From IMG/VR virus record IMGVR_UViG_2571042445_000002: a stretch of DNA of 64,000 bases; one strand, given 5' to 3'. Numbering within the stretch: the stretch's first letter is position 1; each line of letters opens with the position of its first letter. This stretch comes from a virus. Lineage: Duplodnaviria > Heunggongvirae > Uroviricota > Caudoviricetes. Below, one piece after another: positions 17,112-58,720 of the stretch. The notes beneath the pieces are model-generated. The model was not told the origin of the DNA and did no database searches. It worked only from the letters and a program-made list of their open reading frames with translations. The position numbers were made by a program, and so were the translations under genes.

Positions 17112-17128
17112 TTAATTTTCTAACACAG
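17112..17128. promoter_or_regulatory. operator-like motif TTAATTTTCTAACA
   Basis: member of the dispersed 14-bp motif family. Confidence 0.5.
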
Positions 17129-17215
17129 TGTGTTTTTATACACTGTTGATCCGACGGCACGTGATCGAGTAGGATCGCGGTCACTGCTCCGGTAGCGACT
17201 GCCAAAAAAAGCAAA

Positions 17216-17237
17216 AGCCGCTGAGTAGCGGCTTTTG
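17216..17237 (+). terminator. rho-independent terminator candidate
   Basis: agccgct-gagt-agcggct then TTTTGGG. Confidence 0.5.
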
Positions 17238-17297
17238 GGTGTATAAATCCACTGGCATAGATTTATACGGTAGATAGATTTTTCACGGAACTATCTG

Positions 17298-17930
17298 GTG
17301 AGTATTTTAAATTCAGTTTCAGTTACTTTCAACACTTCTGAGTATAAAAACAACACTGAATACCACAAAAAAATCAAAGGTCATCAGTTGAGTTTTTTTG
17401 CTCGTCATAGCGGTTTTCTTTCCCCTTCACATAGCGCCATTATTGCCGAGTTCGCCAACCTGGCAGGAGCTACCGATGAATACATGATCCGTCGCTCATA
17501 TGCGGATATGTCCGAGATTACAGGACGCAGTATTTCTACTGTGCGCCGGGCATTTGCCGAAGCGACGAAGTGCGGAATGCTTGTTAAGCAGCATCAGGTA
17601 GCGAATAACAATGCTCAGGTGTGTAACGTGTACCGGTTTACAACACAATTTCTCCACTTCATTCATGTAGCAATGGAGATAGGGAGTAAGCAGGGCATCA
17701 AATTTGCCAACGCCACAAAACTGGTTAAGCAGTTGATTTCAAAGGTTCGTTATTTTTTTGAAACTGGGAACCCCCTGTTCAAATTGAACAAGTCCCCCCA
17801 TGTTCAAAATGAACAGCCAATAGAAAATAAGAGTCACTCTATAGCCAAAAGAAGAGAAAGATCATGCGCGGTTCAGCCAAAGGCTTCACCAGCAGATAGT
17901 TCTCAAGCGGATAATGGGGGGGCTGGATAA
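17298..17930 (+). CDS. HTH protein, possible RepL-like lytic replication protein
   Basis: 210 aa, GTG start; winged-helix-like segment ITGRSISTVRRAFAEATKCGML; downstream of an operator motif as P1 kilA-repL is. Confidence 0.3.
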   Translation: MSILNSVSVTFNTSEYKNNTEYHKKIKGHQLSFFARHSGFLSPSHSAIIAEFANLAGATDEYMIRRSYADMSEITGRSISTVRRAFAEATKCGMLVKQHQVANNNAQVCNVYRFTTQFLHFIHVAMEIGSKQGIKFANATKLVKQLISKVRYFFETGNPLFKLNKSPHVQNEQPIENKSHSIAKRRERSCAVQPKASPADSSQADNGGAG

Positions 17931-18261
17931 AAAACCAGTAATCAGGGAAGAACATACCAACCACTGCCTGGCGGCGGCAAAAGCGAGAGCTGCAAAGCGT
18001 CGTTCAGATGAGGGGCACGCAAAACGGCAGGCTCTGTATCGTACCGCTGAAAAGCTGGCAAAAAAATTTGCATGGATACGTAGTGCCGCTACAGCAGTGA
18101 ATAAGCCTAAACAATCCAGTGCCCTGGATTTCTCAATGGATTATTCTGGCTCCCAGGGGTGTGCAACCATTGGTGAAGCCTTTGACCTGATGAAACAGCG
18201 TGGCTATCGGTCTGAATTTGACCGGGAAGACTGGTCAATTCCGGAGGGCTTTCGGGGATGA
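17914..18261 (+). CDS. basic hypothetical protein
   Basis: 115 aa, overlaps upstream gene. Confidence 0.25.
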   Translation: MGGLDKKPVIREEHTNHCLAAAKARAAKRRSDEGHAKRQALYRTAEKLAKKFAWIRSAATAVNKPKQSSALDFSMDYSGSQGCATIGEAFDLMKQRGYRSEFDREDWSIPEGFRG

Positions 18262-18317
18262 TGTTGCGATTGACTGTACAATAACCGTGCGGCGGGAATT
18301 TCATCGCTCGAAAATGT

Positions 18318-18350
18318 ATGTTAGAAAATTAAATTGATGTTTCTAATCAA
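18318..18350. promoter_or_regulatory. operator-like motif pair
   Basis: ATGTTAGAAAATTAAA plus partial inverted copy TTTCTAA. Confidence 0.45.
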
Positions 18351-18539
18351 GAATGTATGATTTATATCGTCACTAAAAAACAGCATCTGATAAAAATTCT
18401 GTTGATCTTTCTAATGTTCAGGCTTATATTCATGCCGTCGTAGCAAATTCTGCGACCGGGTTTAGCAGCCTGAATGTTAGTGCGGACAACCGCAGATATC
18501 CGATATTGCGGTATTTTTGTGTCCGTAAAACCGCGTTAC

Positions 18540-18677
18540 GCCCAAATTATGGTGGGGCGTGATGGGGAGGCTTCGGCCTGCTGGTTTCACTAACGCCAGT
18601 CTGCTAACCCCGTCACGTCCTGCCACCTGTTTAGCAGCGGGTAGCAGGTTGTTAAACCTGTTAGTGAGGCCGTAACT
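18540..18677 (+). ncRNA. candidate c4-like antisense RNA / structured leader
   Basis: hairpins (e.g. gaggc-UUCG-gcctg) in the leader just upstream of icd-like gene. Confidence 0.25.
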
Positions 18678-18902
18678 ATGGTTAATGCCAATCCTTGCTC
18701 ACGTCCAGAATTCATCTGGCGTTTTCACTCCCTGCAAAAACACTGCGATCACTTCGCAATTGCCGCAACTGAAAAAGAAGCCCGTTCTCTGATCCCTGAT
18801 CAGTATGGCGTTCTCACTGGTCGTTTCTCTACTTCCCCACAACCAAACACCAATCCCTGGTATCGCAATATTACCAATCCCGGCATTGCGGAGGCTCACT
18901 GA
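18678..18902 (+). CDS. Icd-like small protein
   Basis: 74 aa, stop overlaps the ant start (TGATG); paralogue at 59521. Confidence 0.4.
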   Translation: MVNANPCSRPEFIWRFHSLQKHCDHFAIAATEKEARSLIPDQYGVLTGRFSTSPQPNTNPWYRNITNPGIAEAH

Positions 18903-19609
18903 TGGATATCTGCATTCTCGAAAAGCCATCAATGACCAGCATTGAGATCGCGGAGCTGGTGGGAAAACGTCATGACAATGTGAAACGCACTATTGAGACA
19001 TTAGACAAAGGTGGCGTTATTGTTCGTCCTCAAATTGAGGTTTTCGAAAAAATCAATAACTTAGGACTACGACGTAGTGTTGAGGCTTACGTCTTCGAAG
19101 GCGAGCAAGGCAAGCGCGATAGCATTATCGTCGTCGCGCAGCTCTCTCCCGAATTCACCGCCCGGCTGGTGGACCGCTGGCGCGAACTGGAAGAACAAGT
19201 ACGCCAGCCGTTGACCGAAATAGAGATGATCGCTGCAATGGCTGCAAATGCAGTTCAGCAGCAAAAGCGGCTTCATGTTGTTGAGTCAAAGGTTAGCCAG
19301 GTTGCTGAAACCGTCGAGCAGATCAAGAAGGGCAACATGCCAGAAGGTTACATTGGCTATCGTCAGTTAGCGGCGAAATGTGGCCTGACTGAAGCCAAAT
19401 GCCGTAACCTGGTCAACGCTAACCGGATTCCCACAGATACGCATGAGTTTTTGACGCCAGAGGGGGTATTGTCGCGTCGTACTATTGTGGCCTTATCTCC
19501 CTTCATGAATGCCTTTACCCTGATGATGTCGGAGGCTGAACACCGAGGAAAACGCTGGTATCACCCAAGGATGGGACAATTCCAGGTGATCGGTTGGGGA
19601 GGCGAGTGA
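18902..19609 (+). CDS. ant: antirepressor, Rha-family N-terminal domain protein (split form)
   Basis: MTSIEIAELVGKRHDNVKRTIE matches the Rha/antirepressor N-terminal signature. Confidence 0.55.
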   Translation: MDICILEKPSMTSIEIAELVGKRHDNVKRTIETLDKGGVIVRPQIEVFEKINNLGLRRSVEAYVFEGEQGKRDSIIVVAQLSPEFTARLVDRWRELEEQVRQPLTEIEMIAAMAANAVQQQKRLHVVESKVSQVAETVEQIKKGNMPEGYIGYRQLAAKCGLTEAKCRNLVNANRIPTDTHEFLTPEGVLSRRTIVALSPFMNAFTLMMSEAEHRGKRWYHPRMGQFQVIGWGGE

Positions 19610-21126: not shown

Positions 21127-24100
21127 TTGGACAAAATAATTGATTCAATTAGCCAGGCCACCAGCATTGGGGCGCTGATTGAAATTGTTAGTCGGTTGCA
21201 TAAACCGCGAGCTGTAGTGACCTTTGGCGTTAAGAAAGTCGATGGCGTCAGTATTCAGAAAACACGCCGGGCAGCAAACAACGCCGCAGTAAATCTTCTT
21301 AATTCCCTTCCGCCTGGCTTCGATGGGGCGAAATTAACTGACGAACAGCGCCAGATTCTTGCCGGGTATACCGGTGAAGGCGGCCTGACAGATGGTGAGG
21401 GCAGCCAATACGAATACTATACGCCACAGTTTATGGCAGAAGGTATATGGGATCTCTTCGGCGACTACGGTATTGATAGCGGTCACGTACTGGAACCGTC
21501 AGCAGGCACAGGTATTTTCCAGGAGACAAAACGGCAGGGCATGATAATGACCAGTGCCGAACTGTCTCCGATCTCCGGTCGAATAAACCAGCTTTTGCAC
21601 CCGGAAGATGATGTGAATATCGGGGCGTTTGAGGCGCTGGCGGCGAAAGATGCAATGTATGACCACGCAGTTGGTAACGTACCGTTTGGCGAAGGGCGTT
21701 CCGGCGTCGCCGGGCTTGATCCGGCATATGCAAACGAGAAGAACGTTGGCAATTATTTTGTGCTGCGCACGATCGACAAGGTTAAGCCTGGTGGACTAAT
21801 TGTATTGGTGGTGCCGAATGGCATGACCGATGGTACGAAATACAAAAAATTGCGCGATAAAGTCAGCCGTAAAGCGGAATTTTTGGGCGCGCATCGTATG
21901 CCTTCTGGTACGTTCAGCGAATCCGGTACAGATACCGTGGTGGACGTATGGGTATTGCGTAAACACCCGGAAACCTTCCTGGAGATGATCCCCGACACGG
22001 ATGATGCAACGCTCAAATCGGCAAACGTCCTTTGGGATACCTTCCTCAAAGGGAAATGGTTTACAACCGAAGGGAAGCGATTTGTTTACGGCGACATGGA
22101 ACGCACCAGCTTCCGCAATACCCTGGTGGTGAAAAAGGACGGTCGTGTATCCAATGAGTCGATGAAAACCGCGTTATCATGCCGCTTTGAAAGCCGTATT
22201 AATTGGGATTTGCTCGGAGTAACTACCCAGGCATGGCAGGGCGCAAAAGTAGGGGATAAGCGTCTTGTAGGCGGTATCTGGCATGAGTTTGATGGCCTGA
22301 AATGGGTTAAGGACACGACAACCAAATCCTCCGCGCTTGATGTAAGTCGATATGGTGTTTCGACGTTTGGCGATCTGCAGATCGCGTTCCAGTCAACAAA
22401 CGGGATTCTGGCTTTGTCATGGGACCAGATATCGGCGATCGCGTCCGACTATCCATCGGTTGTCAGTGATGAAGTGGCAGCAATGATTCGCTTTGCTGGC
22501 AAACAGCGAGAAAAAGACAGGGAGCGCGTTATGCGCGGTGCGTTGATAGGGCAGTTGATCAACAAGGCACTTGATTTGCGTAACCTGGGGGTGAACGTTG
22601 ATGACAAACTGGCAGATGCATCCCGCCTGGCGGCAGCAGAAGTTGCGAAGTATGGACCACCGCACGCGATTAAGCTGAATGGGCTTGCTGAAGCTGGCGC
22701 TAAAAACTGGATGACGTTCACTGGCAATGTGAAACAGGATGGTTCCACTTCTGACCTTCTGGCAGGGCGACTTGATGTAACGGATGGTGCTGCCGGTATT
22801 GACTTTACACGTCCGGAACAAGTGATAGCACATCTTTTCAGTGATGTAGCCCTTAATCCTATAACGCTGGGCGACTTTCGTGAGGCGTTTGCTGGTGAAC
22901 TGCCAGAGGACGACGACGCGGCCCTTGAATACCTGGCGAAATTTGATGATATCGCTATTGATGGGTATGGCTGCCTGCTGCCGATGGACCGCGCCACCAG
23001 CGGCGATATTGTAACCAAAACAGCATTGCTGGTGGGCTGGCGTGATGCATCAACAGGTGAGCAGAAAGCGAACTTTGAGCGTCAGTTGGCGAAAATCGAA
23101 GAGAAACGCATTTTCACGCCACTAAATAAAGTCACCGTTAATCTGAACGCCCGCTGGCTGGATCGCCGCTTGATAAAAGAGTTCCTGGCAGAGCAGGGCT
23201 ATGACGAGTTTAAGTACACTGAACCTGATCTGAAGGTCGTCGATGGCATTCTGGTATCTCCGGACGATTACGAAGGTAAGGACGGGGTATTTACCGGCTA
23301 TCAGCTACGAACCGTAAACGGCAAAAACGGGAATGAGTTCAAGAAGGCCAACAATAAAGACGGCTTCCTGAACCAGTTAGAAAACTACCTGAACGGTGTT
23401 AAACCGCGTGGGCAGAACGCTAACGAGTACCTGGATAAAATTGCTCAACTGGAAGTTAGCTTTAACGACTGGTTACGCACCCACCCGCAGGCGGATCAGA
23501 TAGCCCGTGACTATAACGACGCATTCAATGGCTTCATTCCGTTCACGCACTCTAACGCACCGCTTGGCCTGGAAGGGATTAGTGGAAAGCGCATTCCTCT
23601 GACTTATCAGAATGAAGAAGTTCGTCGCTTGTCAGAAGATGGGCGCGGCATCATGGGATTTGGTACCGGGCTGGGTAAAACCACGACCGCGCTTGCGCTT
23701 GAGGCGTATAACTTCGAAACAGGTCGTACTAAACGCACGTGTATTGTTGTTCCGAAGGCGGTTTATCAGAACTGGTATCACGAGGCACAGAGCTTCTACA
23801 GTGCTGATGCCTTCGCCAATATGATGTTTATCGGTCTGGATGAAGTTCGTGATGACAGCGGAAATATTCTGACCGCTCCGGTGCTTGATGAAAATGGCGA
23901 ACCCCGCCTCGACAGTAACGGGCAGCCTCTTACCAGAAATGTTGTGAAAGAGTCCGCCAGCGCCGTTATCGTTCAGCGCATGAACATGATCCCGTCGTCA
24001 AATTGGCGAACGGTCATCATGACAAAAGAACAATTCGCGTCTATCCCGCTACGAGAAAAAACCATCGAGGAGAACTCACAGCAAGCTGTCTTTAATGCTG

Positions 24101-28436: not shown

Positions 28437-28697
28437 ATGCGGAAGAATCGTAGGTTTACGATCGACGACTTAAAAGCGTACTCACAAGGGAAGGGATACG
28501 CCCTTGAATACCACCGTTATAAGCGGGTATTTACCCTGCGGCATATAGAAAACCCTTCGAAATGGGGATGGATTTATTTTCCGCACACTGACGATAAGCT
28601 GGTGGGACTTGTTGATGATTTATCCTATGAAGGATGGATGATTGCTATCGACAAGGCGGTTACGGAAATTAACGAACCTGATAAAATAAACCATTAA
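28437..28697 (+). CDS. hypothetical protein
   Basis: 86 aa, 2-bp spacing from upstream ORF. Confidence 0.3.
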   Translation: MRKNRRFTIDDLKAYSQGKGYALEYHRYKRVFTLRHIENPSKWGWIYFPHTDDKLVGLVDDLSYEGWMIAIDKAVTEINEPDKINH

Positions 28698-28872
28698 AAA
28701 TAACAAGTTGGGTAAATGACATACAATTTACCCGGCTTGTTGACCCGCATCACCATTTACTCTAAAAACAAGTCCGACCTGTTGCATCCGCCTATCTCTT
28801 CAGTAGTATTCCCCTCGGTTTTGATAAAACTAACGCTCTTGTTATTATCGTGTTCATGATTTCAGGAAGTTT

Positions 28873-28888
28873 GTGTTAGAAATTTGAT
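28873..28888. promoter_or_regulatory. operator-like motif TGTGTTAGAAATTTGA overlapping a start codon
   Basis: motif family member overlapping the VRR-NUC gene start. Confidence 0.5.
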
Positions 28889-29330
28889 GCGAAGACGCAG
28901 GCATCATAGTGCGTATTCTGAAATATCCCCGCACGCTGCTGCACTGAGAGAGTTAGAAAGAAATCCTGACTTATTAAAACGGAATTACGAACATTACGAA
29001 CAGGTTCGCGTTCTGGATTGGCTGTATCGCAACATGCGATACGTGTATGAGCACACACACTCAACACCGAACGGCGGCCTGAGAGGCAAAAGGACAGCCA
29101 TTAAGATGGTGGCAGAAGGTCAGAAGAAGGGCTATCCGGACCTTTCTATTGACCTTGCTCGTGGTGGGTATCACGGAATGCGCATTGAGATGAAGCACGG
29201 GAGAAACCGTCTGACTCCCGAACAGCTCGTCTGGATGACTCGCCTCACGGAAGCAGGCTATTACTGCTTTGAGGCGCGCAGTGCCGATGAAGCCATAAAA
29301 GCTATCACTGAATATGTAAATCTTGATTAA
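28887..29330 (+). CDS. VRR-NUC domain nuclease
   Basis: TPNGGLRGKR...GYPDLSIDL...RIEMKHGRNRLTPEQLVWMTRLTEAGYYC fits the VRR-NUC pattern. Confidence 0.5.
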   Translation: MRRRRHHSAYSEISPHAAALRELERNPDLLKRNYEHYEQVRVLDWLYRNMRYVYEHTHSTPNGGLRGKRTAIKMVAEGQKKGYPDLSIDLARGGYHGMRIEMKHGRNRLTPEQLVWMTRLTEAGYYCFEARSADEAIKAITEYVNLD

Positions 29331-29888: not shown

Positions 29889-29926
29889 TGCCTGAGTCTT
29901 TTTATTGAAATTGCATACTAATAAAA

Positions 29927-29942
29927 TATGTTAGAAAACTAA
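29927..29942. promoter_or_regulatory. operator-like motif TATGTTAGAAAACTAA
   Basis: motif family member about 20 bp upstream of the 402-aa gene. Confidence 0.5.
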
Positions 29943-29962
29943 TTTCAAGAAAGGGAACAAAC

Positions 29963-31171: not shown

Positions 31172-31172
31172 T

Positions 31173-31206
31173 GTATTAGAAAATTAAAATTGTTTTTCTA
31201 ACATAT
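31173..31206. promoter_or_regulatory. operator-like inverted pair
   Basis: TGTATTAGAAAATTAA and inverted TTTTTCTAACATA at the entry to the ncRNA/tRNA island. Confidence 0.5.
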
Positions 31207-31322
31207 TGATTATGTAGTTAACTTAACATAGAATTTTTCGTGCTGGTGGGGAGCTTCCCATGTCGCTTGCGGGTTTGATAGTCACTTCATTGTCTTTCCC
31301 CACCAGCATCAAACAATTTTAA

Positions 31323-31336
31323 GTGTTAGAAAGTAA
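31323..31336. promoter_or_regulatory. operator-like motif GTGTTAGAAAGTAA
   Basis: motif family member. Confidence 0.4.
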
Positions 31337-32515
31337 ATTTTAAGGTAAGGGAAAGCTCCGGCACCGTGCAAATACATGCCCGGCAGGTTTAGTGCGTAAA
31401 GTGGTTTCAGCGAGAGCATTTTACGGAGTAAACGACAGTGACTTGAGCCACGGAAGGTCTTTTTATGGTGTTCATTGATGATGATCTGGCAGTGAGTATG
31501 TTAAGTGGGCCAGGCTGCATCGGGTCATCATCAGTGCACATCCTCAACGTTAAGGAGGCGCAGAGTTGGGTTTTCCTCTTATTTTGCTGACTCTGAGTCT
31601 CCTTAACGTTGCGGTAATGCACCTATGCGGATGTGGCCTTGCATTGTGTCTTGAAAGAATGGGGTAAGGCCGGGGATATCCTCAGGGGGAGGCACCCCCG
31701 CTGCAACGAACAGCCACAGACGGCAGTCGAGTGATGGAAACGTGCAAAGACTTTAAACCTCGTTACGGCTGGCGTGGCAAACGCGACAACCGAGACAGAG
31801 CGGTGACGGGCGGAGAGAGAGCCGCTTCAAGATAAAAGCCGACTATGGATTCCTTTCTGCGGGCCTTTGAAAGTGAATCTTGCTCAGGCAGTCGGCTTTT
31901 ATGTTGATACGTAGCGATAACCGCGACAGGCGCGGCGGTAAGTATGGCGGGGTTATTCCTTCCCCGTTGAGGACACCGAGTTGCCAGGTTGACCATACGC
32001 CTAAGTGGCAATACCGCGAGTGGGATATTTGCCCACCTTCGGGTGGGTGTTTTTTCAGTGTTTTCGTCATGGTTAGCGACTTTGCGGCGGTTTAGAACCC
32101 GACCATTAAAGTAAATGCAAACGATGATCTGATGATGGTAGCGGCCTAAGAAGCCTGACGCCACGGGGTATGAGTCGTCCCCCGTCAAAAAATCGACCGC
32201 AGAGTGTCCCCGTCTGTGTATTAGGGAACGGGGAGGCATAACAGGCAAGGGCGCTGGTGTGATTAACCAGATGAATGAGAAGGGTCAGGTCTTTCTGGTC
32301 AGCGCCCTTACCTGTTACGTCCCTCCCGCGTAACAGCCATTGGTTAATGGCTTTCTGGGATAATGTCTTGTAACGGGTATATCCCGTCATGCTGAAGGCG
32401 CTAATCACGCTGGAAGCCAGGGTTATGCATCCCCTGTTACCGAATTGCAGCCAGGGCGCGGTGCGCCGAAAAGCATACGGAGGTGGAAGCCCTCGCCGGA
32501 GACGTACCCGGCAAG

Positions 32516-32591
32516 TGATGGTGTAGCTCAGTGGTAGAGCAGTTGGCTGTTAACCAACTGGTCGGTGGTTCGAATCCACTCACCATCGCCA
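32516..32591 (+). tRNA. tRNA-Asn (anticodon GTT)
   Basis: 76 nt; acceptor gatggtg/caccatc, anticodon loop CTGTTAA, T-loop TTCGAAT, 3' CCA encoded. Confidence 0.85.
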
Positions 32592-32593
32592 AT

Positions 32594-32669
32594 GCCGGTT
32601 TAGCTCAGTTGGTAGAGCGCCTGCCTTGTAAGCAGGATGTCAGCGGTTCGAGTCCGTTAACCGGCACCA
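32594..32669 (+). tRNA. tRNA-Thr (anticodon TGT)
   Basis: 76 nt, 2 nt after tRNA-Asn; anticodon loop CTTGTAA; T-loop TTCGAGT; CCA encoded. Confidence 0.85.
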
Positions 32670-32671
32670 AC

Positions 32672-32760
32672 ACAACAGGTAAGGGTATTTTGCGACGTCG
32701 GAGATCGCCGAGCTTGGCAGAGGGTTCGAATCCCTACGAAGTACCCTTACCGTTGTGATG
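32672..32760 (+). ncRNA. tRNA-like hairpin element or pseudo-tRNA
   Basis: 15-bp stem acaacaggtaagggta/tacccttaccgttgt enclosing a T-arm-like GGTTCGAATCC; no full cloverleaf. Confidence 0.3.
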
Positions 32761-32857
32761 AATGCACAGGCTGATGTGCCGCAACTACAGTAGTGCGCGC
32801 TTTGCGGGGCTTGCTACAACCCTGTGTCGGAGTTCAGCACCGACCATCACAATCACT

Positions 32858-32944
32858 GGAGAGTAGGGAGCATGGTGCTCAAGCGGTCTTGAAAACCGTC
32901 CCATTGCGCAAGCGATGATGGTTCGATTCCATTACTCTCCGCCA
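32858..32944 (+). tRNA. tRNA-Ser-like (anticodon TGA), long variable arm, atypical D-arm
   Basis: acceptor ggagagt/actctcc, anticodon loop CTTGAAA, long variable arm, T-loop TTCGATT, CCA encoded. Confidence 0.5.
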
Positions 32945-33200
32945 GCGCAACGTTAAGAGTATTTGGCTAATTAAGCGAATGCCGGAAGCAGAACCGGATC
33001 ACCAAATGCTCTTACCATTGCGGTGAATGCGGCTAAGCGCACGCGGAACAGTTAAAACAGTAAAGGTGGTCTTTTTACTGGCGTAACGAGAATCCATAAG
33101 TGATCCGGCGTTAATTGTTAACTGGTTAACGTCACCGGGAGGCACCCGGCACCGCAACCTAACAGCAATGGCGTTTTGTCTTAAAAGGTGGCTGCAAGTG

Positions 33201-33329
33201 ATGGATTTTTGGGCGTTTGCCGATAAAAACCCGGAGTGGACATTATTGTTTCTGCTGGTGGTTGCATACGGGGTAGAGCAAGCGGCAAAAGCCTTACGCG
33301 GTTCTGGCAAAAAGCGTAAGCGTAATTAA
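33201..33329 (+). CDS. small membrane peptide (42 aa)
   Basis: ATG ORF MDFWAFADKNPEWTLLFLLVVAYGVEQAAKALRGSGKKRKRN, one TM helix plus basic tail; below the ORF-track size cutoff. Confidence 0.25.
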   Translation: MDFWAFADKNPEWTLLFLLVVAYGVEQAAKALRGSGKKRKRN

Positions 33330-33338
33330 CAGTAATCT

Positions 33339-33414
33339 GGCCCTTTAGCTCAGTGGTTAGAGCGGGCGACTCATAATCGCACGGTCACCGGTTCAAGTCC
33401 GGTAGGGGCCACCA
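33339..33414 (+). tRNA. tRNA-Ile2 (anticodon CAT, lysidine type)
   Basis: 76 nt, nearly identical over D-arm and anticodon arm to E. coli tRNA-Ile2 as I recall it; CCA encoded. Confidence 0.8.
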
Positions 33415-34442: not shown

Positions 34443-34822
34443 TGTACGAGGCTACTAAATTACGCACTGAGGATGCGATGCACATTGGTTGGGACATCAT
34501 CACCTGCAAGATAACATCATGCAAGGCTACACGCACAGACGCCGGACACAAGAGCACAATATCAGGTTATGTCGTGATGTCAGTCAGGAGTGTGCGCATA
34601 CGCTTCAGATGGAAAGCCTGCCAGGTTACATCATCAATGCCGCTTACCGTCGAGCAGGATTATTTATGCTTACCCGAAATAGACGGAGCGTTGCTGGTGG
34701 GCAATAGTGGTCGAAAAGCCGATTTTGAAGCCAGTCTGAAGATGGCGCAGGCGGTGATCAACAAACATAAAGGGAAGTGGGAGGCAAAAGTTAAGCATGT
34801 TGTTCGTTTATCCCGCTGGTAG
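34439..34822 (+). CDS. hypothetical protein
   Basis: 127-aa ORF coupled to the upstream gene; an alternative-frame ORF overlaps it. Confidence 0.3.
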   Translation: MMYEATKLRTEDAMHIGWDIITCKITSCKATRTDAGHKSTISGYVVMSVRSVRIRFRWKACQVTSSMPLTVEQDYLCLPEIDGALLVGNSGRKADFEASLKMAQAVINKHKGKWEAKVKHVVRLSRW

Positions 34823-34855
34823 TGTTAGCAAATTGATATTAATTTTCTAATACAT
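34823..34855. promoter_or_regulatory. operator-like inverted pair upstream of the Lpa-like gene
   Basis: GTGTTAGCAAATTG and inverted TAATTTTCTAATACA. Confidence 0.5.
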
Positions 34856-39383: not shown

Positions 39384-39462
39384 CCAGGAGCGGCTACCGC
39401 ATGGCTGACGGATTTGCGAAGTGATCTGGTCGGTGTTTTTTTTTGGGAAAAAGTCCCGATTT

Positions 39463-39496: not shown

Positions 39497-39647
39497 GCTA
39501 TAATCTCCAGTAAACAGGCAGTATTGACAAGGATGAAAAATCATGCCTCGAATCAAAGGCTTGAATTTTGAAAATTAACTTATAACTACCCTGTCAGTTT
39601 TCTATTTTTCACGTAGCGTTATCTGTATATAGAGGTTTAATAGTTTC

Positions 39648-40676: not shown

Positions 40677-40694
40677 ATTAATTTTCTAACAATC
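40675..40694. promoter_or_regulatory. operator-like motif
   Basis: AAATTAATTTTCTAACAATC after cre, upstream of the next operon. Confidence 0.5.
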
Positions 40695-44408: not shown

Positions 44409-45971
44409 ATGAAAATGACAAGTATTCAACAACGTGCAGAGCTTCATCGCCAGATCTGGCAAATTGCTAACGATGTCAGGGGGTCAGTCGATGGATGGGA
44501 TTTTAAGCAATACGTTCTGGGCGCACTTTTCTACCGTTTTATCAGCGAAAATTTTTCCAGCTATATTGAAGCCGGTGATGACAGTATCTGTTATGCGAAA
44601 CTGGATGACAGCGTAATTACTGATGACATTAAAGACGATGCCATCAAAACTAAAGGCTACTTCATCTACCCCAGTCAGCTTTTCTGCAACGTAGCTGCGA
44701 AAGCAAATACCAATGACAGACTGAATGCGGATTTAAACAGCATCTTCGTTGCTATCGAAAGTTCTGCTTACGGTTACCCTTCAGAAGCTGACATCAAAGG
44801 TTTGTTTGCTGATTTCGATACTACCAGTAACCGCCTGGGTAACACCGTTAAAGATAAAAATGCCCGCCTGGCTGCGGTTCTGAAAGGGGTTGAAGGGCTA
44901 AAACTTGGTGACTTCCACGAACATCAGATTGACCTGTTCGGTGACGCCTATGAGTTCCTGATTTCTAACTATGCGGCGAATGCTGGTAAGTCAGGCGGCG
45001 AGTTCTTTACACCGCAGCACGTCTCTAAGCTGATTGCACAACTGGCTATGCACGGGCAGACCCACGTTAACAAAATCTACGACCCGGCAGCAGGTTCCGG
45101 TTCGCTGTTGTTGCAAGCTAAAAAACAGTTTGATGACCATATCATCGAAGAAGGTTTTTTTGGTCAGGAAATCAACCATACGACCTATAACCTGGCGCGT
45201 ATGAACATGTTTTTGCACAACATCAACTACGACAAGTTTGATATCAAGCTGGGCAATACGCTGACTGAACCGCACTTCAGAGATGAAAAACCGTTTGATG
45301 CCATCGTTTCTAACCCGCCGTATTCGGTGAAATGGATTGGCAGCGATGACCCGACGCTGATTAACGATGAACGTTTTGCCCCGGCTGGCGTTCTGGCCCC
45401 CAAATCCAAAGCTGACTTTGCGTTTGTATTACATGCACTGAACTATCTTTCTGCCAAAGGTCGTGCTGCGATTGTCTGCTTCCCAGGCATTTTTTACCGT
45501 GGCGGCGCGGAGCAGAAAATCCGTCAGTATCTGGTTGATAATAACTATGTCGAAACCGTGATTTCACTGGCACCGAACCTGTTCTTTGGCACCACCATTG
45601 CCGTAAACATTCTGGTGTTGTCTAAACATAAAACAGATACAAAAGTTCAGTTTATTGATGCCAGCGAACTGTTCAAAAAAGAGACTAACAACAATATCCT
45701 GACCGATGCCCATATCGAACAGATTATGCAGGTATTTGCCAGCAAGGAAGATGTTGCTCATCTGGCGAAATCTGTTGCGTTTGAGACTGTTGTCGCGAAT
45801 GACTATAACCTGTCGGTGAGCAGCTATGTGGAAGCGAAAGATAATCGCGAAATTATCGATATCGCTGAGCTGAATGCGGAACTGAAAACCACGGTCAGCA
45901 AAATCGACCAGTTGCGCAAAGATATTGATGCGATTGTGGCTGAAATTGAAGGCTGCGAGGTGCAGAAATGA
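44409..45971 (+). CDS. hsdM: Type I restriction-modification methyltransferase subunit
   Basis: 520 aa; SAM motif [10 protein letters not shown] and catalytic SNPPYSVKW. Confidence 0.85.
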
Positions 45972-47254
45972 GCGAGTTGAGTTATCTGGAAAAATTGCTG
46001 GATGGGGTTGAGGTTAAGTGGTTGCCATTGGGGAACGTCGCTGAAATTTATGGTGGCCTAACAGGAAAGAGTAAATCTGATTTTGAGAACGGTAATGCCA
46101 GATATGTTTCATACAAAAAAATATTTGGTTATTTAGATGTGAATGATTACCCTACTGATTATGTATATATTAGTGAGGGAGAAAGACAAAATAAAGTAAG
46201 ATATGGGGATGTTTTATTTACTGGCTCATCTGAAATTGCTGATGAAGCAGGCATGTCCTCCGCCGTTACAGTACACTTCGATGAATCAGTGTATTTAAAC
46301 AGCTTTTCTTTTGGTATCAGATTCAGTAACAGCATAAAAATCAAACCGGAGTTCGCAAAATACCTTTTTCGAACCCATTTCATGCGCTCTGAAATAGCAA
46401 AAACAGCTAGTGGTGTAACACGCTTTAATATTTCAAAATCAAGATTTAAAAAAATACTGGTTCCTATCATTTGTCCTAATGATCCAGAAAAATCCCTTGC
46501 CATCCAGTCTGAAATCGTTCGGATTCTGGATAAATTTACTGAGCTTACAGCTGAGCTTACAGCTGAGCTTACAGCTGAGCTTACCATGCGTAAAAAACAG
46601 TACAACTACTATCTTGACCAGTCGCTAAGTTTTAAAGAGGGTGAGGTCGAGTTGAAAACGTTGGGAGAGATGGGGACACTTATAAGAGGCAAACGCTTTG
46701 TGAAATCCGACATAATTCCCAAGGGAGTACCGTGTATTCACTACGGTGAAATGTATACCCATTACCGCATCTGGGCGGATAAAGCAAAATCGTATATCTC
46801 TGTTGAATTAGCGTCCAAGTTAAGAAAAGCCTCATGCGGAGATGTTGTTTTTGTCTCTGCGGGTGAAACAATTGCAGATATTGGTCGTGGAACAGCCTGG
46901 TTAGGCGATGAAGATGTTGTTATTCATGACGCATGTTTTTTCTATAAAAGTTCATTGAACCCCAAGTATGTGGCCTACTTCTCAAGAACAAATTTCTTCC
47001 ACGATCAGATTAAAAAATCGATCTCTTCGGGGAAAATTTCTGCCATCAATGCCAAAGGCTTTGAAAAAGTGATTATTCCAGTTCCTTCACCAGAAGAACA
47101 AGCACGCATCGTTGCTTTCTTGGACAAATTCGACACATTGACAAGCTCCATCACCGAAGGCTTACCCCGTGAAATAGAACTACGCCAGAAGCAGTACGAG
47201 TACTATCGTGATTTACTGTTCAGTTTCCCAAAACCTGAAACTGTCAGTAATTAA
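45968..47254 (+). CDS. hsdS: Type I restriction-modification specificity subunit
   Basis: 428 aa; two AT-rich target-recognition domains around a central conserved region with TAEL repeats; ATGA overlap with hsdM. Confidence 0.8.
46541..46585 (+). repeat. 12-bp tandem repeat (gagcttacagct, 3.75 copies) encoding (TAEL)n in HsdS
   Basis: direct read of the sequence; protein [22 protein letters not shown]. Confidence 0.9.
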
Positions 47255-47375
47255 TTGACCATTGCTACCGACCGGGCCACCTTAACACCCGGTCAGTATA
47301 TAGACTATTTTTTACACGCTGGAAGTCACCATTAACGCCCTTCCGGCCCTTGCCAGACGGCACAAAGGATGCGCT

Positions 47376-50300
47376 ATGACTCATCAAACACACACCATTG
47401 CTGAATCCAATAACTTTATCGTTCTTGATAAATACATCAAAGCTGAGCAAACAGGCGACAGCTATCAGAGCGAATCGGACCTGGAACGTGAACTGATTCA
47501 GGACCTGCAAAATCAGGGCTATGAATTTATATCCGTAAAATCACAGTCAGCGATGCTGGCCAACGTTCGGGAACAGCTTCAGAGCCTCAATGGTGTGATG
47601 TTTAATGACAGAGAGTGGCGGCGTTTCACGGAGCAGTATCTGGACAACCCGAGCGATGGCATTCTGGATAAGACCCGTAAAATCCATATCGACTATATTT
47701 GCGACTTTATTTTTGATGACGGGCGTCTTGAAAATATCTATCTGATAGATAAAAAGAATCTCATGCGCAATAAGGTGCAGATTATCCAGCAGTTTGAACA
47801 GACGGGTTCTCATGCTAACCGTTATGACGTCACGATCCTGGTTAATGGTTTACCGCTGGTGCAAATCGAACTAAAAAAACGCGGGGTGGCGATTCGTGAG
47901 GCTTTCAACCAGATACATCGTTACAGTAAAGAGAGTTTTAACAGCGAAAATTCCCTGTTTAAGTATCTGCAACTGTTTGTCATTTCTAACGGCACCGATA
48001 CCCGTTACTTTGCCAACACCACAAAGCGCGATAAAAACAGTTTTGACTTCACAATGAACTGGGCGAAATCAGACAACACGCTGATTAAAGACCTCAAAGA
48101 CTTTACCGCTACCTTTTTCCAGAAACATACTCTGCTGAATGTTCTGGTGAACTACAGCGTTTTTGACAGTAGTCAGACGCTACTGGTGATGCGACCGTAC
48201 CAGATTGCAGCTACCGAACGAATTTTATGGAAAATCAACAGTTCCTATAAAGCGAAAAACTGGTCCACTCCCGAAAGTGGTGGCTTTATCTGGCACACCA
48301 CCGGTTCCGGTAAAACACTGACCAGCTTTAAAGCCGCGCGTCTGGCAACAGAACTGGACTTTATTGATAAAGTCTTCTTCGTGGTCGACAGAAAAGACCT
48401 CGATTACCAGACGATGAAGGAATATCAGCGTTTTTCGCCAGACAGCGTCAACGGCTCGGAAAATACCGCAGGACTTAAACGAAATCTGGATAAGGACGAT
48501 AACAAAATTATCGTCACCACTATTCAGAAACTTAATAACCTGATGAAAGCAGAAAGCGACCTGCCTGTATACAATCAGCAAGTGGTGTTTATATTTGATG
48601 AATGTCACCGCAGCCAGTTTGGAGAAGCACAGAAAAACCTGAAGAAGAAATTCAAACGCTATTATCAGTTTGGTTTTACCGGCACACCTATTTTCCCGGA
48701 AAACGCCTTAGGCTCAGAAACAACCGCCAGCGTATTTGGCCGTGAATTGCATTCATATGTTATTACCGATGCGATTCGTGACGAAAAAGTGCTCAAATTC
48801 AAGGTGGACTACAACGATGTGCGGCCACAGTTTAAGTCTTTAGAGACAGAAACTGACGAGAAAAAACTGAGTGCGGCTGAAAATCAGCAGGCGTTTCTTC
48901 ATCCCATGCGTATTCAGGAAATCACGCAATATATCCTGAACAACTTCCGCCAGAAAACCCACCGTACTTTCCCTGGTTCCAAAGGTTTTAATGCCATGCT
49001 GGCAGTAAGCAGCGTGGATGCTGCAAAAGCCTATTATGCGACGTTTAAACGGTTACAAGAGGAAGCCGCTAATAAATCGGCTACCTATAAACCGCTGCGT
49101 ATTGCGACAATCTTCTCCTTTGCCGCCAATGAAGAACAAAATGCCATTGGTGAAATTTCCGATGAAACTTTTGATACCAGCGCAATGGACAGCAGTGCTA
49201 AAGAGTTTCTGGACGCTGCAATTCGTGAATATAACAGCCATTTTAAAACTAACTTTAGCACCGACAGTAACGGTTTTCAGAACTACTATCGTGATTTAGC
49301 CCAGCGGGTTAAAAATCAGGATATCGATCTGCTAATTGTCGTGGGGATGTTCTTAACCGGCTTCGATGCTCCAACATTGAACACGCTATTCGTCGATAAA
49401 AACTTACGTTATCACGGCCTGATGCAGGCATTTTCCCGCACTAACCGCATTTATGACGCCACTAAAACCTTCGGTAATATCGTCACTTTCCGGGATCTGG
49501 AACGCTCAACTATTGATGCCATAACGCTGTTTGGTGACAAAAACACCAAAAATGTGGTGTTAGAAAAGAGTTATACAGAGTATATGGAAGGCTTTACTGA
49601 TGCTGCTACAGGTGAAGCTAAACGCGGCTTCATGACAGTAGTTTCAGAACTGGAACAACGGTTCCCTGACCCTACCAGTATTGAAAGTGAAAAAGAGAAG
49701 AAAGACTTCGTTAAACTGTTTGGCGAATACCTGCGTGCCGAGAACATCCTGCAAAACTATGATGAATTTGCCACGCTAAAAGCCCTGCAACAAATCGATC
49801 TTAGCGATCCTGTTGCGGTAGAAAAATTCAAAGCAGAACATTATGTGGATGATGAAAAGTTCGCTGAATTGCAAACAATTCGTCTCCCTGCTGATCGCAA
49901 GATTCAGGATTATCGTTCTGCCTATAACGATATTCGCGACTGGCAGCGCCGTGAGAAAGAAGCTGAGAAAAAAGAGAAATCAACCACTGACTGGGATGAC
50001 GTAGTTTTTGAGGTCGATTTGCTGAAGTCTCAGGAAATAAACCTGGATTATATCCTTGGACTGATTTTCGAACACAACAGACAAAATAAAGGCAAGGGCG
50101 AAATGATCGAAGAGGTCAAACGCTTAATTCGTTCAAGTCTAGGGAACCGTGCTAAAGAGGGCCTGGTGGTCGATTTTATTCAGCAAACGAACCTGGATGA
50201 TTTACCGGACAAAGCCAGCATCATTGACGCATTCTTTACGTTTGCTCAACGCGAACAGAAACGTGAAGCAGAAGCATTGATAAAAGAAGAAAATCTCAAT

Positions 50301-50492
50301 GAAGAGGCGGCGAAACGCTATATTCGCACATCTTTAAAACGCGAATACGCCACCGAAAATGGTACAGGATTAAATGATACATTACCAAAACTTAGTCCGT
50401 TAAATCCGCAATATAAAACGAAAAAACAGACGGTTTTCCAGAAAATCGTCTCGTTTATTGAGAAGTTTAAAGGCGTAGGCGGAAAAATATAG
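47376..50492 (+). CDS. hsdR: Type I restriction-modification endonuclease subunit
   Basis: 1038 aa; Walker [15 protein letters not shown]-box [12 protein letters not shown]2 helicase layout. Confidence 0.85.
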
Positions 50493-51352: not shown

Positions 51353-51605
51353 TGGTTGCCTCCGCTTCCCACGTTTTCAGACTTTCACCACAGAACGGGC
51401 AAAATGAAACTCGAATAGGCGATTTAGAAAATTCACCAGACCGCAGCATGATCAGGTCTTGTGAATTAATTAATGCATGGTTATAAATTCTGTATTTCAG
51501 AAGCCCTTTTCGCGTCGTGTATTCAGCGTCATACTCCAGCGATTGTGCCAAAGCCGCGCACGGTTCTATCTTGTTGCCATTAATTTGGCATTTTGACTCA
51601 CTCAC
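51339..51605 (-). CDS. hypothetical protein with C-terminal Cys motif
   Basis: 88 aa, CPFCG motif; same conserved initiation region. Confidence 0.3.
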   Translation of the reverse strand: MSESKCQINGNKIEPCAALAQSLEYDAEYTTRKGLLKYRIYNHALINSQDLIMLRSGEFSKSPIRVSFCPFCGESLKTWEAEATSEQN

Positions 51606-52188
51606 TGGTTGCCCCCTGAATACGCTTAAACTCGATTACCCATACCCACGGGTTAGATAGCCAGTTATCCTGCCCGTAAATACTGCGCCAGATATCACCA
51701 AAACCAACGCGATAAACAGCTTCAGGTGGCGTAATCTTGTACGTCGCCGGAGTTGCGCCTTCTGCTTTAGCATCTGCCTCGCTCATGTCATGCAGCCGTT
51801 CCACACGCACGTCGGTAATTTCCAGAAGAATGCGCGATGCCCAGCGCGGCATGTGAATTGATGGCGTCCACTTTTCTGATACTGGTTTATTACAAACATC
51901 GACCGGAACCCGGTGCGTTTGTTCTGTCCAGGAGTTACGCACGCTTGCGCGATAAACCAGCGTTGCGACGTCCGTCGCTTTGCCATGTACCCGGTAGGTT
52001 TCGCGAACCCAAATACGATCGCCCGGTTGACCATATGGACAATGCTTGGCAAGCAACTCTGCGGCAACTGCTCGTCCATAGAATTTTTCTTCAACAATCC
52101 TGCGAGTCTGTGTTTTATTCCCGCCAAGAATTGCCCGGACCATCTCATCGTTAAAAATCATCCCGCGTTCTTTCATTTTTTGATCCAC
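51598..52188 (-). CDS. ASCH-like domain prophage protein (putative)
   Basis: 196 aa; N-terminal MIFNDEMVRAILGGNKTQTRR...GDRIWVRE resembles ASCH/PUA-like domains. Confidence 0.35.
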   Translation of the reverse strand: MDQKMKERGMIFNDEMVRAILGGNKTQTRRIVEEKFYGRAVAAELLAKHCPYGQPGDRIWVRETYRVHGKATDVATLVYRASVRNSWTEQTHRVPVDVCNKPVSEKWTPSIHMPRWASRILLEITDVRVERLHDMSEADAKAEGATPATYKITPPEAVYRVGFGDIWRSIYGQDNWLSNPWVWVIEFKRIQGATSE

Positions 52189-53188: not shown

Positions 53189-53230
53189 AATGTATACCGA
53201 CTCTGTTTTGTTCCGAGCGGTAAAATAATC

Positions 53231-53263
53231 TGTTAGAAAATTAAAATCAATATTCTAATATCA
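53231..53263. promoter_or_regulatory. operator-like inverted pair
   Basis: TGTTAGAAAATTAAAA and TATTCTAATATCA upstream of the minus-strand DUF968 gene. Confidence 0.5.
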
Positions 53264-56273: not shown

Positions 56274-56944
56274 TGGTTGCCTCCTTTGCGAAGCTGGGCA
56301 GCGAACCTATCAGCTGCATCCGCGCAAGCAGAAGCAACGGAATCAAAAAATGGATCATCTCCTGTATCGCGCATCGTCAAAGCGAATGCCTCCACCCCTT
56401 GTGCCTGTATTTCTACAAGGGATGCCTTAGATGTAGTGCTTTTCGCCTCGCCTAATTCGTTATGAGCGATGTTCGCTATACATGCGATGTCTATATCTGG
56501 ATGATTAATTGGGCAATGGCTAAGAATTGCCTCAAGTGCTGCTTTTTTGCTTTGGCATTCCGCCACCAGCGCCCCGCAATTGCTTTCCAGCTCTGCAATA
56601 CACTTTTTAGCGGCCTCCAGCTCAACACGCAGATTCTCAAGCGTTAGAGCCTTCTCCACGTTCTCGTCCAGCAGTTCAATCACATCAGGATCGCTACCAT
56701 CAACTACTGATATGCGCGAATTTTTGTAATGCTCGTCAGCATAAGTTCGTCCAGTTTTGAAGCATCCGTCATCCTCCATGCCGGAACAGGCATAAACAAC
56801 ATGTGATCCAGATATGCGCTGCATTGACATTTCCTCGCCACAAACAGGGCATTTAGGCGCTGGTTTCGGTGAATAACGTTCACGTAACGGATAGTAAAGC
56901 TCGATCTCCGCCAGTTGCTCTGGCGTTAAACCTTCAGACTTCAT
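56270..56944 (-). CDS. Ea22-like coiled-coil protein
   Basis: 224 aa; C-terminus ends with the same AEQLRKGG(S/N)Q motif as the 54777 gene. Confidence 0.4.
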   Translation of the reverse strand: MKSEGLTPEQLAEIELYYPLRERYSPKPAPKCPVCGEEMSMQRISGSHVVYACSGMEDDGCFKTGRTYADEHYKNSRISVVDGSDPDVIELLDENVEKALTLENLRVELEAAKKCIAELESNCGALVAECQSKKAALEAILSHCPINHPDIDIACIANIAHNELGEAKSTTSKASLVEIQAQGVEAFALTMRDTGDDPFFDSVASACADAADRFAAQLRKGGNQ

Positions 56945-57251
56945 GTACTCTCCTTTCGAAATAAACGTACTGATTAATCATTCCCAGGGGCATTTCGAGT
57001 TTTTCTGCGATCTCACGGCGGGGAACACCACACTGATGAAGCTGCCGCGCCAGTTCTATATCGCTCTGCCGGTATTTGGCTGACTGGTGAAAGTCTCCTT
57101 TCAGAATCATGCTGATCCGCAGTTGCCGCGCTTTAGTCCTGACAGCACCACCGGTACGCCCGATCAGTCTCCCAATACCCTCGACTGTCATAGTCCCGGC
57201 GCACTGGCGGAGTATCATGATTTCTGCCCTTCCCCATCCCCGCCAGCTCAC
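56934..57251 (-). CDS. HTH-containing small regulatory protein (putative)
   Basis: 105 aa with HTH-like segment GVPRREIAEKLEMP. Confidence 0.3.
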   Translation of the reverse strand: MSWRGWGRAEIMILRQCAGTMTVEGIGRLIGRTGGAVRTKARQLRISMILKGDFHQSAKYRQSDIELARQLHQCGVPRREIAEKLEMPLGMINQYVYFERRVHEV

Positions 57252-57886
57252 GCAGAACTCCTTCTAACCAAAAGAACGCCATCTTCAGAAACAATGTTGC
57301 AGGACTTCAGGTAATTCATTGCCACTTTCGGTAATGGATTCTTTGGATCGGCGTTTGCCAGGGATTTCGATAACCTCAAGATAAATTTGATCATTACCTT
57401 CTGACGGAGCTTGTGCTCATGAGATGCAGACAGGTAATAGGAAATGGTATGGGCTAAACGCTCACGAAGCTGTTCTGTGCCGTGATATACAGCAGCGATA
57501 TCACGCAGTGCATTGACCAGTTCCCGGTAAATATGCGGAGCAACCTGGCATTCAATGTTGGTTGGTGACTCATAAATTACATTCAGCCCCAGCTTTTGAG
57601 CCAGCTCGTGCTCTGCACGAGCGCCAACTGATTCCTCCCACCCCTTGAGCAAATAGACCGCATTAGCCGAACGCAACATTGCAAGGCAAATATCCATGTA
57701 TTCACTCTGGCAGAGGCCAGCAGGTAACAGCGCCGGATTCAGAACAATATGCCCTACCTCCATCAGCTCTTTTGCTTTCGAAAAAAACGCTGTGCGGTTG
57801 TAGTCGGGATAACCAGTCATCGGACCCGCGATGTAAATTTTCATAATGCGTTTTGACATCAAAGTTTCCCCAGGAACGTTACGCAA
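57248..57886 (-). CDS. DUF4406-like (nucleoside deoxyribosyltransferase-fold) protein
   Basis: 212 aa; N-terminal YIAGPMTG...VLNP...LKGWEESVGARAEHE matches the DUF4406 pattern. Confidence 0.4.
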   Translation of the reverse strand: MRNVPGETLMSKRIMKIYIAGPMTGYPDYNRTAFFSKAKELMEVGHIVLNPALLPAGLCQSEYMDICLAMLRSANAVYLLKGWEESVGARAEHELAQKLGLNVIYESPTNIECQVAPHIYRELVNALRDIAAVYHGTEQLRERLAHTISYYLSASHEHKLRQKVMIKFILRLSKSLANADPKNPLPKVAMNYLKSCNIVSEDGVLLVRRSSA

Positions 57887-58053
57887 AAGTTGATGAGAGC
57901 AAAGAGTTCAATGCCCAGCTCAAACAACGCCAGGACAGTGAAAAACAGGGCATATAGCAACCCAATTTCTGTACCGGATTGCTGGTGGATTGCACTTATT
58001 GCGACAAGCATCATGACCTCCTGATATAGCGTCTGAAAAAAAAGTATCTTCAT
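57859..58053 (-). CDS. small membrane protein
   Basis: 64 aa, two hydrophobic helices. Confidence 0.25.
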   Translation of the reverse strand: MKILFFQTLYQEVMMLVAISAIHQQSGTEIGLLYALFFTVLALFELGIELFALINFCVTFLGKL

Positions 58054-58055
58054 TT

Positions 58056-58089
58056 TGTGTTAGAAAATCAATTTTGATTTTCTAACACA
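58056..58089. promoter_or_regulatory. perfect palindromic operator
   Basis: TGTGTTAGAAAATCAATTTTGATTTTCTAACACA between divergent genes. Confidence 0.6.
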
Positions 58090-58132
58090 TTTGATCAACC
58101 ATAGCGGCGATGTAGACAAACCGGGTATTTCT

Positions 58133-58708
58133 ATGAAGCAAAGCTATTGGGAGAAACAGACACAAAAAGCCCTGCAAAAACTGGCTGATCCGAAATGGCG
58201 GGAGGAACAAAGGGCAAAGCGTCTTCAGCAAGCTCAACGCCAGCAGCAGCGTGCGCGAGAAAAAGCCGCATCGCCTGAATATCGGCAAAAGAAAATTGAA
58301 AAAGCGAAGCAATATGAACAGCGAAGAAAAGAGAAGGCCGCTTCTGCTCCTGTCAAAAAAACTCGCGCGTCACGCGGCCTGAAAGGCAGAACACTCACAG
58401 CAGATGAGCGCCGGATACAAACTGCCATCGGTGCTCTCCCCTGCATTGCCTGCCATATGCACGGACAGCATAGCCCTGTGGTATCCCTGCACCACATCTT
58501 CGGGAGAACAGCAGAGAACGCGCATAAATACGTCCTCCCTTTGTGTAAATGGCACCATCAACACGCAGCGCCAGCAGAGATCCGCGAGCAATACCCCTGG
58601 TTGGTTCCTGTTCATGCTGATGGAAAAATAGGCGGCAAAGCAGATTTCAGGCGGCACAATGCTGATGAAATGACGTTGTATCAGATGGTGACTGAATTAA
58701 TAAATTAA
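58133..58708 (+). CDS. HNH-type nuclease, Ref-like (putative)
   Basis: basic Q/R/K-rich N-terminus then Cys/His core LPCIACHMHG...LHHIFGR...CKWHHQH; ATG at 58133 chosen because the upstream TTG abuts the operator. Confidence 0.4.
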   Translation: MKQSYWEKQTQKALQKLADPKWREEQRAKRLQQAQRQQQRAREKAASPEYRQKKIEKAKQYEQRRKEKAASAPVKKTRASRGLKGRTLTADERRIQTAIGALPCIACHMHGQHSPVVSLHHIFGRTAENAHKYVLPLCKWHHQHAAPAEIREQYPWLVPVHADGKIGGKADFRRHNADEMTLYQMVTELIN

Positions 58709-58720
58709 TTTTCTAACATT
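58703..58720. promoter_or_regulatory. operator-like motif
   Basis: AATTAATTTTCTAACATT overlapping the ref-like stop. Confidence 0.5.

Follow-up and report, generated by a model that had tools for sequence, protein, structure and literature searches.

A dispersed asymmetric motif as the probable operator of the C1-type master repressor in a D6-like, P1-related plasmid prophage

The DNA analysed here was a stretch of 64,000 nucleotides of IMG/VR virus record IMGVR_UViG_2571042445_000002 (Caudoviricetes), referred to below as the window. Sequence comparison identified the window as a plasmid prophage of the D6-like type, related to P1. It was approximately 82% identical in DNA to Escherichia phage D6 (MF356679 / AY753669), both in the immC region and over the genome, and 98–99.6% identical to seven Escherichia plasmids of 90–94 kb, for example NZ_CP085065.1 from E. 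coli with 99.6%. Synteny with D6 was full, with 66 D6 proteins mapping collinearly onto the window. The c1 repressor gene was adjoined by a rox site identical to that of D6 and by the gene for a Dre recombinase with 94% identity. The gene lpa was located at 34930–35322, and its PHROG comprises Lpa-like activators. A group of tRNA genes was found at 32517–33414 on the plus strand, downstream of the motif sites at 31172–31205 and 31322–31340. The genes and motif sites are listed below, with scores in bits from a position weight matrix (PWM); pairs of inverted half-sites are given as unstranded.

38229–39266, minus strand: c1 repressor gene of 345 amino acids (aa), putative operator-binding protein from homology to D6 C1 and P1 C1.
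17109–17127, minus strand: predicted operator upstream of repL (lytic replication), 23.1 bits; counterpart of P1 OrepL/Op53.
18317–18335, plus strand: predicted operator upstream of immI-1 (c4 RNA, icd, ant), 27.9 bits; counterpart of P1 Oc4/Op51.
28872–28890, plus strand: predicted operator overlapping the pmgM start, 19.0 bits; counterpart of P1 O26/Op82.
29927–29945, plus strand: predicted operator 18 bp upstream of pmgS, 28.7 bits; counterpart of P1 OpmgRa/b (Op86).
31172–31205, unstranded: predicted bivalent operator of two inverted half-sites ahead of the tRNA/tciA-type operon, 25.0 and 24.9 bits; counterpart of the divalent P1 Obanab (Op72ab).
31322–31340, plus strand: second, single predicted operator in the leader of the tRNA operon, 19.3 bits; orthologous D6 site at 8910.
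34821–34854, unstranded: predicted bivalent operator ahead of lpa (late-promoter activator) at a distance of 76 bp, 18.8 and 25.9 bits; counterpart of P1 Olpa/Op94.
39278–39296, minus strand: predicted operator 12 bp upstream of the c1 start codon (putative autoregulation), 25.5 bits; counterpart of P1 Oc1ab.
39367–39385, plus strand: weak candidate operator in the c1–rox interval, TATTAGAAAATGTA, three mismatches and <9 bits; possible counterpart of P1 Oc1c/d.
40675–40693, minus strand: predicted operator overlapping the stop codon of dre and 56 bp ahead of the hyp117-hyp116-dut operon, 22.6 bits.
53229–53262, unstranded: predicted operator 41 bp upstream of the pdcB - pmgT-like operon, with a strong half at 53229–53247 and a weak inverted half at 53244–53262; functional counterpart of P1 OpmgT/Op88.
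58056–58089, unstranded: predicted bivalent operator (16+2+16) between the divergent ref (plus strand) and hyp88...ppp operon (minus strand), 27.3 and 26.2 bits; counterpart of P1 Oref and Oppp.
58702–58720, minus strand: predicted operator on the stop codon of ref, ahead of immI-2 (isrK, c4, icd2, ant2), 26.3 bits; placed as P1 Omat/Op2b.
18902–19609, plus strand: antirepressor gene of immI-1, putative repressed target and likely inducer of the switch; PHROG 63, anti-repressor Ant, E=3.6e-48.
59736–60662, plus strand: antirepressor gene of immI-2; PHROG 63, anti-repressor Ant, E=5.9e-62.

The motif was first represented by the 14-mer TGTTAGAAAATTAA, which was present on both strands of the window with five exact copies and 15 copies at ≤2 mismatches. 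Dinucleotide-preserving shuffles gave expectations of 0.00 and 0.55, respectively. The most repeated 10-mer of the window was TGTTAGAAAA, with 11 copies. Alignment of the 15 copies revealed a conserved, asymmetric block of about 19 bp, wider than 14 bp, with the consensus t-R-TGTTAGAAAAyTAA-w-w-T. The information profile comprised approximately 19 informative, non-palindromic positions, and eleven positions of the alignment were invariant or near-invariant, G residues among these, with TTAG as an invariant stretch. The PWM was trained on sites of another genome, phage D6 only, because circularity was to be avoided, and then run over the window. It returned 15 sites at 18.8–28.7 bits, and the next best match had 14.7 bits. 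Scores were bimodal, and Markov-simulated sequences gave an expectation of 0.36 sites at ≥15 bits.

The original prediction had described the motif as intergenic and had named a matrix scan of coding against non-coding DNA as the test that could refute this. With a gene map curated via D6 orthology, the non-coding share of the window was 11.9%. The centres of all 15 strong sites lay inside this non-coding DNA (binomial P=1.3e-14 per site and 6.5e-11 for the 11 independent loci), in agreement with the description. Four strong sites overlapped the start or end of a gene by 2–7 bp. One of these overlaps had been noted before as a start codon at 28887, and an in-frame ATG was indeed located there, inside the site at 28872–28890. 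Across the sites, the distance to the start codon ranged from -3 to 343 bp and both orientations occurred. The first 17 kb (positions 1–17000), which hold late tail, lysis, dar and head genes, had no match even at 9 bits. All 13 positions listed in the original prediction were within 0–3 bp of a real site; 12 of these sites were strong, and only 39367 was weak.

Three inverted pairs had two strong halves, 31172–31205, 34821–34854 and 58056–58089. A fourth pair had also been claimed, but the site at 53229–53262 combined a strong half of 24.1 bits with a weak partner of 10.7 bits. The designation of 58056–58089 as a perfect 34-bp palindrome had to be corrected, with 32 of 34 positions being self-complementary and two perfect 16-bp arms enclosing a non-symmetric TT. 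Beyond the window, the CP085065 record was used for the remaining replicon and contributed a pair at record positions 187/202 and sites at 86254/86303, which amounted to four to five further sites. The whole replicon held about 20 half-sites at about 13 loci, and the window alone 15 half-sites at 11 loci.

Phage P1 has 22 dispersed asymmetric 17-bp C1 operators, which control RepL and Lpa (PMC8546580). The experimentally defined C1 operators annotated in the P1 RefSeq record were used for positional comparison. Ten of the 11 window loci were upstream of orthologues of P1 genes under annotated C1 operators. The matched targets were repL, c4-icd-ant, pmgM, pmgS, the tRNA operon, lpa, c1, ref, the ppp operon and pmgT. 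Only the locus at 40675, downstream of dre and upstream of the dut operon, was without a P1 counterpart. The repL site was situated between pro and repL, 171 bp before repL, with an orthologous D6 site at 22465. At immI-1, the 3' end of the operator overlapped the -35 of a promoter-like site at 18334–18361, as at P1 Oc4/P2c4, so that the operator of the c4 promoter abuts the -35 in both elements. The pmgS operator overlapped the -10 of a promoter-like site at 29905–29932, a promoter-like -35 began at 31206 next to the bivalent site of the tRNA operon, and a promoter-like site at 28821–28848 was present just upstream of the pmgM site. The proteins of ref and ppp had 54% and 85% identity to those of P1, and the ORF at 51598–52188 had 43% identity to P1 pmgT. 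P1 Omat (2628–2645) likewise overlaps the ref stop codon, at 2637 in the P1 record.

Further similarities with P1 concerned the form of the operators, which in both elements are asymmetric and AT-rich, 17–19 bp in length, present about 20 times per genome and arranged as single sites and inverted pairs. Targets were shared down to pmgR/S, pmgL/M and the tRNA/ban-type operon, and both elements have a site at the ref stop codon. Differences were found in the geometry of the paired operators, which have overlapping tails and span 28 bp in P1 but 34 bp (16+2+16) in the window. P1 has one immI module, whereas the window has two. The P1 C1 has 283 aa and the window C1 345 aa, with a C-terminal extension of about 60 aa in the latter.

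The P1 C1 operator consensus is ATTGCTCTAATAAATTT (PMC8546580; P1 record), as the original prediction had stated. At ≤3 mismatches, this sequence had 17 matches in P1 itself and none in the window or D6. The window motif had no match in P1 at ≤2 mismatches. With no cross-matches, the two operator sequences were unrelated at the level needed for cross-recognition. The pentamer TTAGA/TCTAA was common to both, but its orientation was reversed with respect to both the AT-rich tail and the dyad of the paired operators. Homology between the two operators would therefore permit two alternative alignments, based either on the TTAGA core or on the AT-rich tail and implying opposite orientations, and neither is preferred here. 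A distinct immunity specificity had been proposed from the difference to P1. The mutual exclusion of the two operators between the genomes is consistent with this; however, since D6 itself carries the motif, the distinct immC specificity would be that of the known D6 lineage and no new one. The GenBank records of D6 contain no annotated operators. No description of the D6 operator consensus was found in the accessible literature, although it may already have been published. In a full-text search, the motif string retrieved unrelated papers only, and none of the papers mentioning 'D6-like' mentioned 'operator'.

Phage D6 showed the identical operator consensus at matching loci. It held 16 motif sites at ≤2 mismatches. 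Based on the deposited annotation, 17 sites with ≥13.5 bits were non-coding or at gene ends, the exception being one site in a probably over-extended pmgM start. An extra pair of D6 at 64114–64147 precedes hrdC and matches P1 Odmt. To assess conservation, 11 intergenic regions were aligned between the window and D6. Perfect conservation was seen at several primary sites, with flanks of 50–70% identity. The operators of pmgS and c1 were identical at 19/19 positions, versus 57% and 70% in their flanks, respectively. The operator at the dre stop codon was conserved at 18/19 positions. In the weak site at 39367–39385, the core TTAGAAAA was kept in D6 amid poorly conserved DNA. The secondary half-sites 31187–31205 and 58071–89 had decayed in D6 but were intact in the window.

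The gene at 38229–39266 had been suggested as the repressor, and the comparison of protein sequences supported this. The window C1 had 80% aa identity to D6 C1 over 345/345 positions. In BLASTP, it had 21% identity to P1 C1 (E=1e-7 over 241 aa), and PHROG 1678 was common to the window C1 and P1 C1 (E=5.9e-159 and 2.6e-140), placing both in the same repressor family. A scan of a local Pfam library detected no recognisable Pfam DNA-binding domain in the window C1. C1 homologues were present in 153 PLSDB records. The motif was identical where C1 was 66–100% identical. At the lower end of this range, the S. Typhi pK91 remnant (C1 66% identical) had the full motif upstream of c1; an operator immediately upstream of c1 is thus common to the window, D6 and pK91. 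This remnant keeps little beyond c1-dre-dut, yet has two sites flanking c1/dre, including the one at the dre stop codon. In an Enterobacter phage-plasmid with a C1 of 40% identity, only the core yGTTAGAAAAT was found, as its most repeated AT-rich 10-mer. Plasmid pEuc3 of Pantoea eucalypti (C1 about 31% identical) had neither the D6-type nor the P1-type motif, and P1 C1, at 21% identity, uses a different operator. The motif therefore changed along with the divergence of C1, the pattern expected if C1 reads the motif. In pEuc3, the 13-mer GCAATTCTAAGGA was observed just upstream of c1 and lpa, at 16497–16511 and 22916–22930. It is a candidate for a third operator type that keeps the TCTAA core; two copies in 37.6 kb are too few to call.

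Altogether, the motif is interpreted as the operator of the C1-type master repressor of this D6-like, P1-related plasmid prophage, with a probability of roughly 0.88 on sequence evidence. We infer the identity of the bound protein (C1), its monomeric state on the DNA and the repressive outcome of binding. As a monomer, C1 would occupy asymmetric sites of about 19 bp, either single or in head-to-head 16+2+16 pairs. At or beside early promoters, it would keep lytic replication from repL silent in the lysogen. Further targets of this silencing would be pmgM, pmgS, ref and lpa, the activator of the late genes, together with the tRNA, dut, ppp and pdcB/pmgT operons and both antirepressor modules (c4-icd-ant). 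From the site 12 bp from its start codon, c1 may be autoregulated and limit its own synthesis. Antirepressors from the immI modules would inactivate C1, and all loci would be derepressed at once. This regulon logic is the textbook P1-type lysogeny control, which the findings in the window leave unchanged, and the D6 lineage is known as well.

Several observations weighed against this interpretation. The window C1 was only 21% identical to P1 C1, and its NCBIfam phage_rep_C1 score was 24 bits against a cut-off of 500; with the equivalog threshold failed, it is a distant family member and no equivalog. Relative to the downstream gene, single sites did not always have the orientation seen in P1. 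The contrast in conservation between the window and D6 was modest when all operator columns were counted (82.7% versus 75.3% in the flanks), because secondary half-sites drift. No homologue of Lxc or Coi was detected in the window, where very small or divergent proteins could escape detection, and the P1 accessory circuit may therefore not apply. In the position of lxc, after darB-ulx, the 86-aa gene at 28437–28697 had no similarity to Lxc (E=5.6) and a different PHROG. The c1–rox interval contained no coi-like ORF, and its ORF at 39371–39556 was without a family. In a sigma-70 consensus scan, promoter-like sites overlapped or abutted operators at c4-1, pmgM, pmgS, the tRNA operon and lpa. Consensus promoters adjoined only these 5/13 site-gene pairs, no match elsewhere reached 9/12, and promoter-like matches in operator regions were no commoner than in shuffles. 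For this reason, promoter overlap was not used as strong evidence.

Binding of the motif by a regulator other than C1 was considered unlikely. The regulator could be another plasmid-encoded DNA-binding protein or an AT-preferring nucleoid protein such as H-NS, Fis or IHF, with C1 reading something else. The pairing of C1 with the motif is indirect, C1 is very distant from P1 C1 and gave no recognisable Pfam DNA-binding domain, and the motif is AT-rich, all of which would fit such a regulator. However, the motif has eleven invariant or near-invariant positions, some of them G, a specificity beyond that of nucleoid proteins. Site placement mirrored the P1 C1 operators gene by gene, a site was present at the 5' end of c1 itself, and the pK91 remnant retained its two sites flanking c1/dre. 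Furthermore, the motif changed as C1 diverged. A function as promoter element instead of repressor site, whether as Lpa recognition box, UP element or -35-like element, appeared very improbable. A -35-like TTGATT in the centre of 58056–58089 and a -10-like TATGTT at 29927 would agree with it. In contrast, the motif was absent at 9 bits from the late operons in 1–17000 and upstream of darB, and it preceded genes of early or immunity function (c1, repL, the immI modules and lpa itself). The variable distance to start codons and the occurrence of both orientations are unlike a fixed promoter box. The P1 late box AAGTKACT is a different sequence, and this -22 box was not enriched in the window, with two copies found versus 1.5 expected. 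An origin of the repeats as remnants without function (scars of recombination, short mobile repeats) or as an artefact of base composition was hardly conceivable, with nothing but AT-richness in its favour against 15 copies versus 0.55 in shuffles, the strict exclusion from coding DNA, sites kept by D6 at orthologous positions within diverged flanks and copies sharing no extended flanking homology.

With C1 as the probable reader of the motif, the D6-lineage operator would allow the repressed regulon to be predicted from sequence and early promoters to be annotated. Phage-plasmids of the D6 and P1 types occur commonly in Enterobacteriaceae of clinical and animal origin, and some carry resistance genes. 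Cross-immunity of co-resident elements would become predictable, with immC common with D6 and immI different, and the operator may provide a basis for orthogonal C1/operator switches.

For residues 1–240 of C1, a Tus-like fold was predicted. Among the invariant residues of C1 are R157, R159, R182 and H186. The structure model was built from a shallow alignment of nine sequences, and its TM-scores were moderate at 0.45–0.49. At the sequence level, hhalign gave a probability of 0.2% for C1 versus Tus, and a profile search of the PDB had no match at E≤10. C1 is therefore regarded as similar in predicted fold but not placed in the Tus family. As a monomer, Tus clamps asymmetric DNA of about 20 bp, a mode of binding that would fit the asymmetric C1 operators. 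The functions would differ, as Tus of E. coli arrests replication forks whereas C1 would repress transcription. C1 also carries an extra helical C-terminal region in the model. No paper connecting C1 with Tus was found within the searchable literature.

A wider proposal, on which the odds are about even, combines these points. C1 repressors of the P1/D6 type might be monomeric DNA clamps with a Tus fold, and the D6 lineage, with the operator TGTTAGAAAAyTAA and head-to-head pairs of 34 bp versus 28 bp in P1, might represent a second specificity that is naturally orthogonal. Further specificities might exist in more distant lineages, represented by the truncated core of the Enterobacter plasmid and the candidate 13-mer of Pantoea pEuc3. 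If true, this would provide a natural series for how a monomer reads a long asymmetric site, together with orthogonal repressor/operator pairs. The Tus-like fold, if confirmed, would offer a structural rationale for the asymmetric operator recognition by P1 C1, a long-standing observation.

Rfam searches identified C4 antisense RNAs at 18545–18630 and 59379–59466, together with the target element and the isrK RNA. The a1b1 targets of immI-1 were located at 18424–18476. Two C4 RNAs with targets imply two immI modules, and icd and an antirepressor gene of the Ant family follow in each case. In both modules (18400–18680 and 59230–59523), the C4 recognition loops and their mRNA targets differed from D6 and P1 in a coordinated, compensatory manner. 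In immI-1, box a was TTAGCAG with the loop CTGCTAA, versus TTGACAG in D6 and P1. In immI-2, a was TTGGAAC and b was GTCAAAG, versus TTGAGAC and GCAAAAG in D6. This divergence of C4 and target matches the immI heteroimmunity of P1/P7 in style. The element probably shares its immC specificity with D6, but not its immI specificity.

The gene repL had one extra G relative to D6 in a run of seven G at 17912–17918. The extra G splits the 320-aa RepL into ORFs at 17298–17930 and 17914–18261. The cause may be a sequencing error in the homopolymer; alternatively, this gene of lytic replication may carry a frameshift that is inactivating or phase-variable.

Unlike D6, the element carries a type I restriction-modification (R-M) cargo and is without most of cin. 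At 7834–8229, the cin invertase was reduced to a 24-aa fragment, and no alternative S'/U' tail-fibre segment was present. The invertible host-range segment of P1/D6 type therefore appears to have been lost or fixed. The R-M system was complete and located at 44409–50492, between phd/doc and Ead/Ea22-like genes, with the following genes.

44409–45971: hsdM.
45968–47254: hsdS.
47376–50492: EcoR124-type hsdR.

No C1 operator was situated upstream of the R-M genes, as expected for genes expressed in the lysogen. A gene for a HicB-like antitoxin was present at 13524–13955 on the minus strand, between ddrB and the portal gene, where D6 has no counterpart. Among the repeated words of the window, k-mers with the Chi sequence GCTGGTGG ranked next after the operator, with CCACCAGC variants reaching five to seven copies per 10-mer, and Chi-containing k-mers dominated the repeated words in the Pantoea relative.

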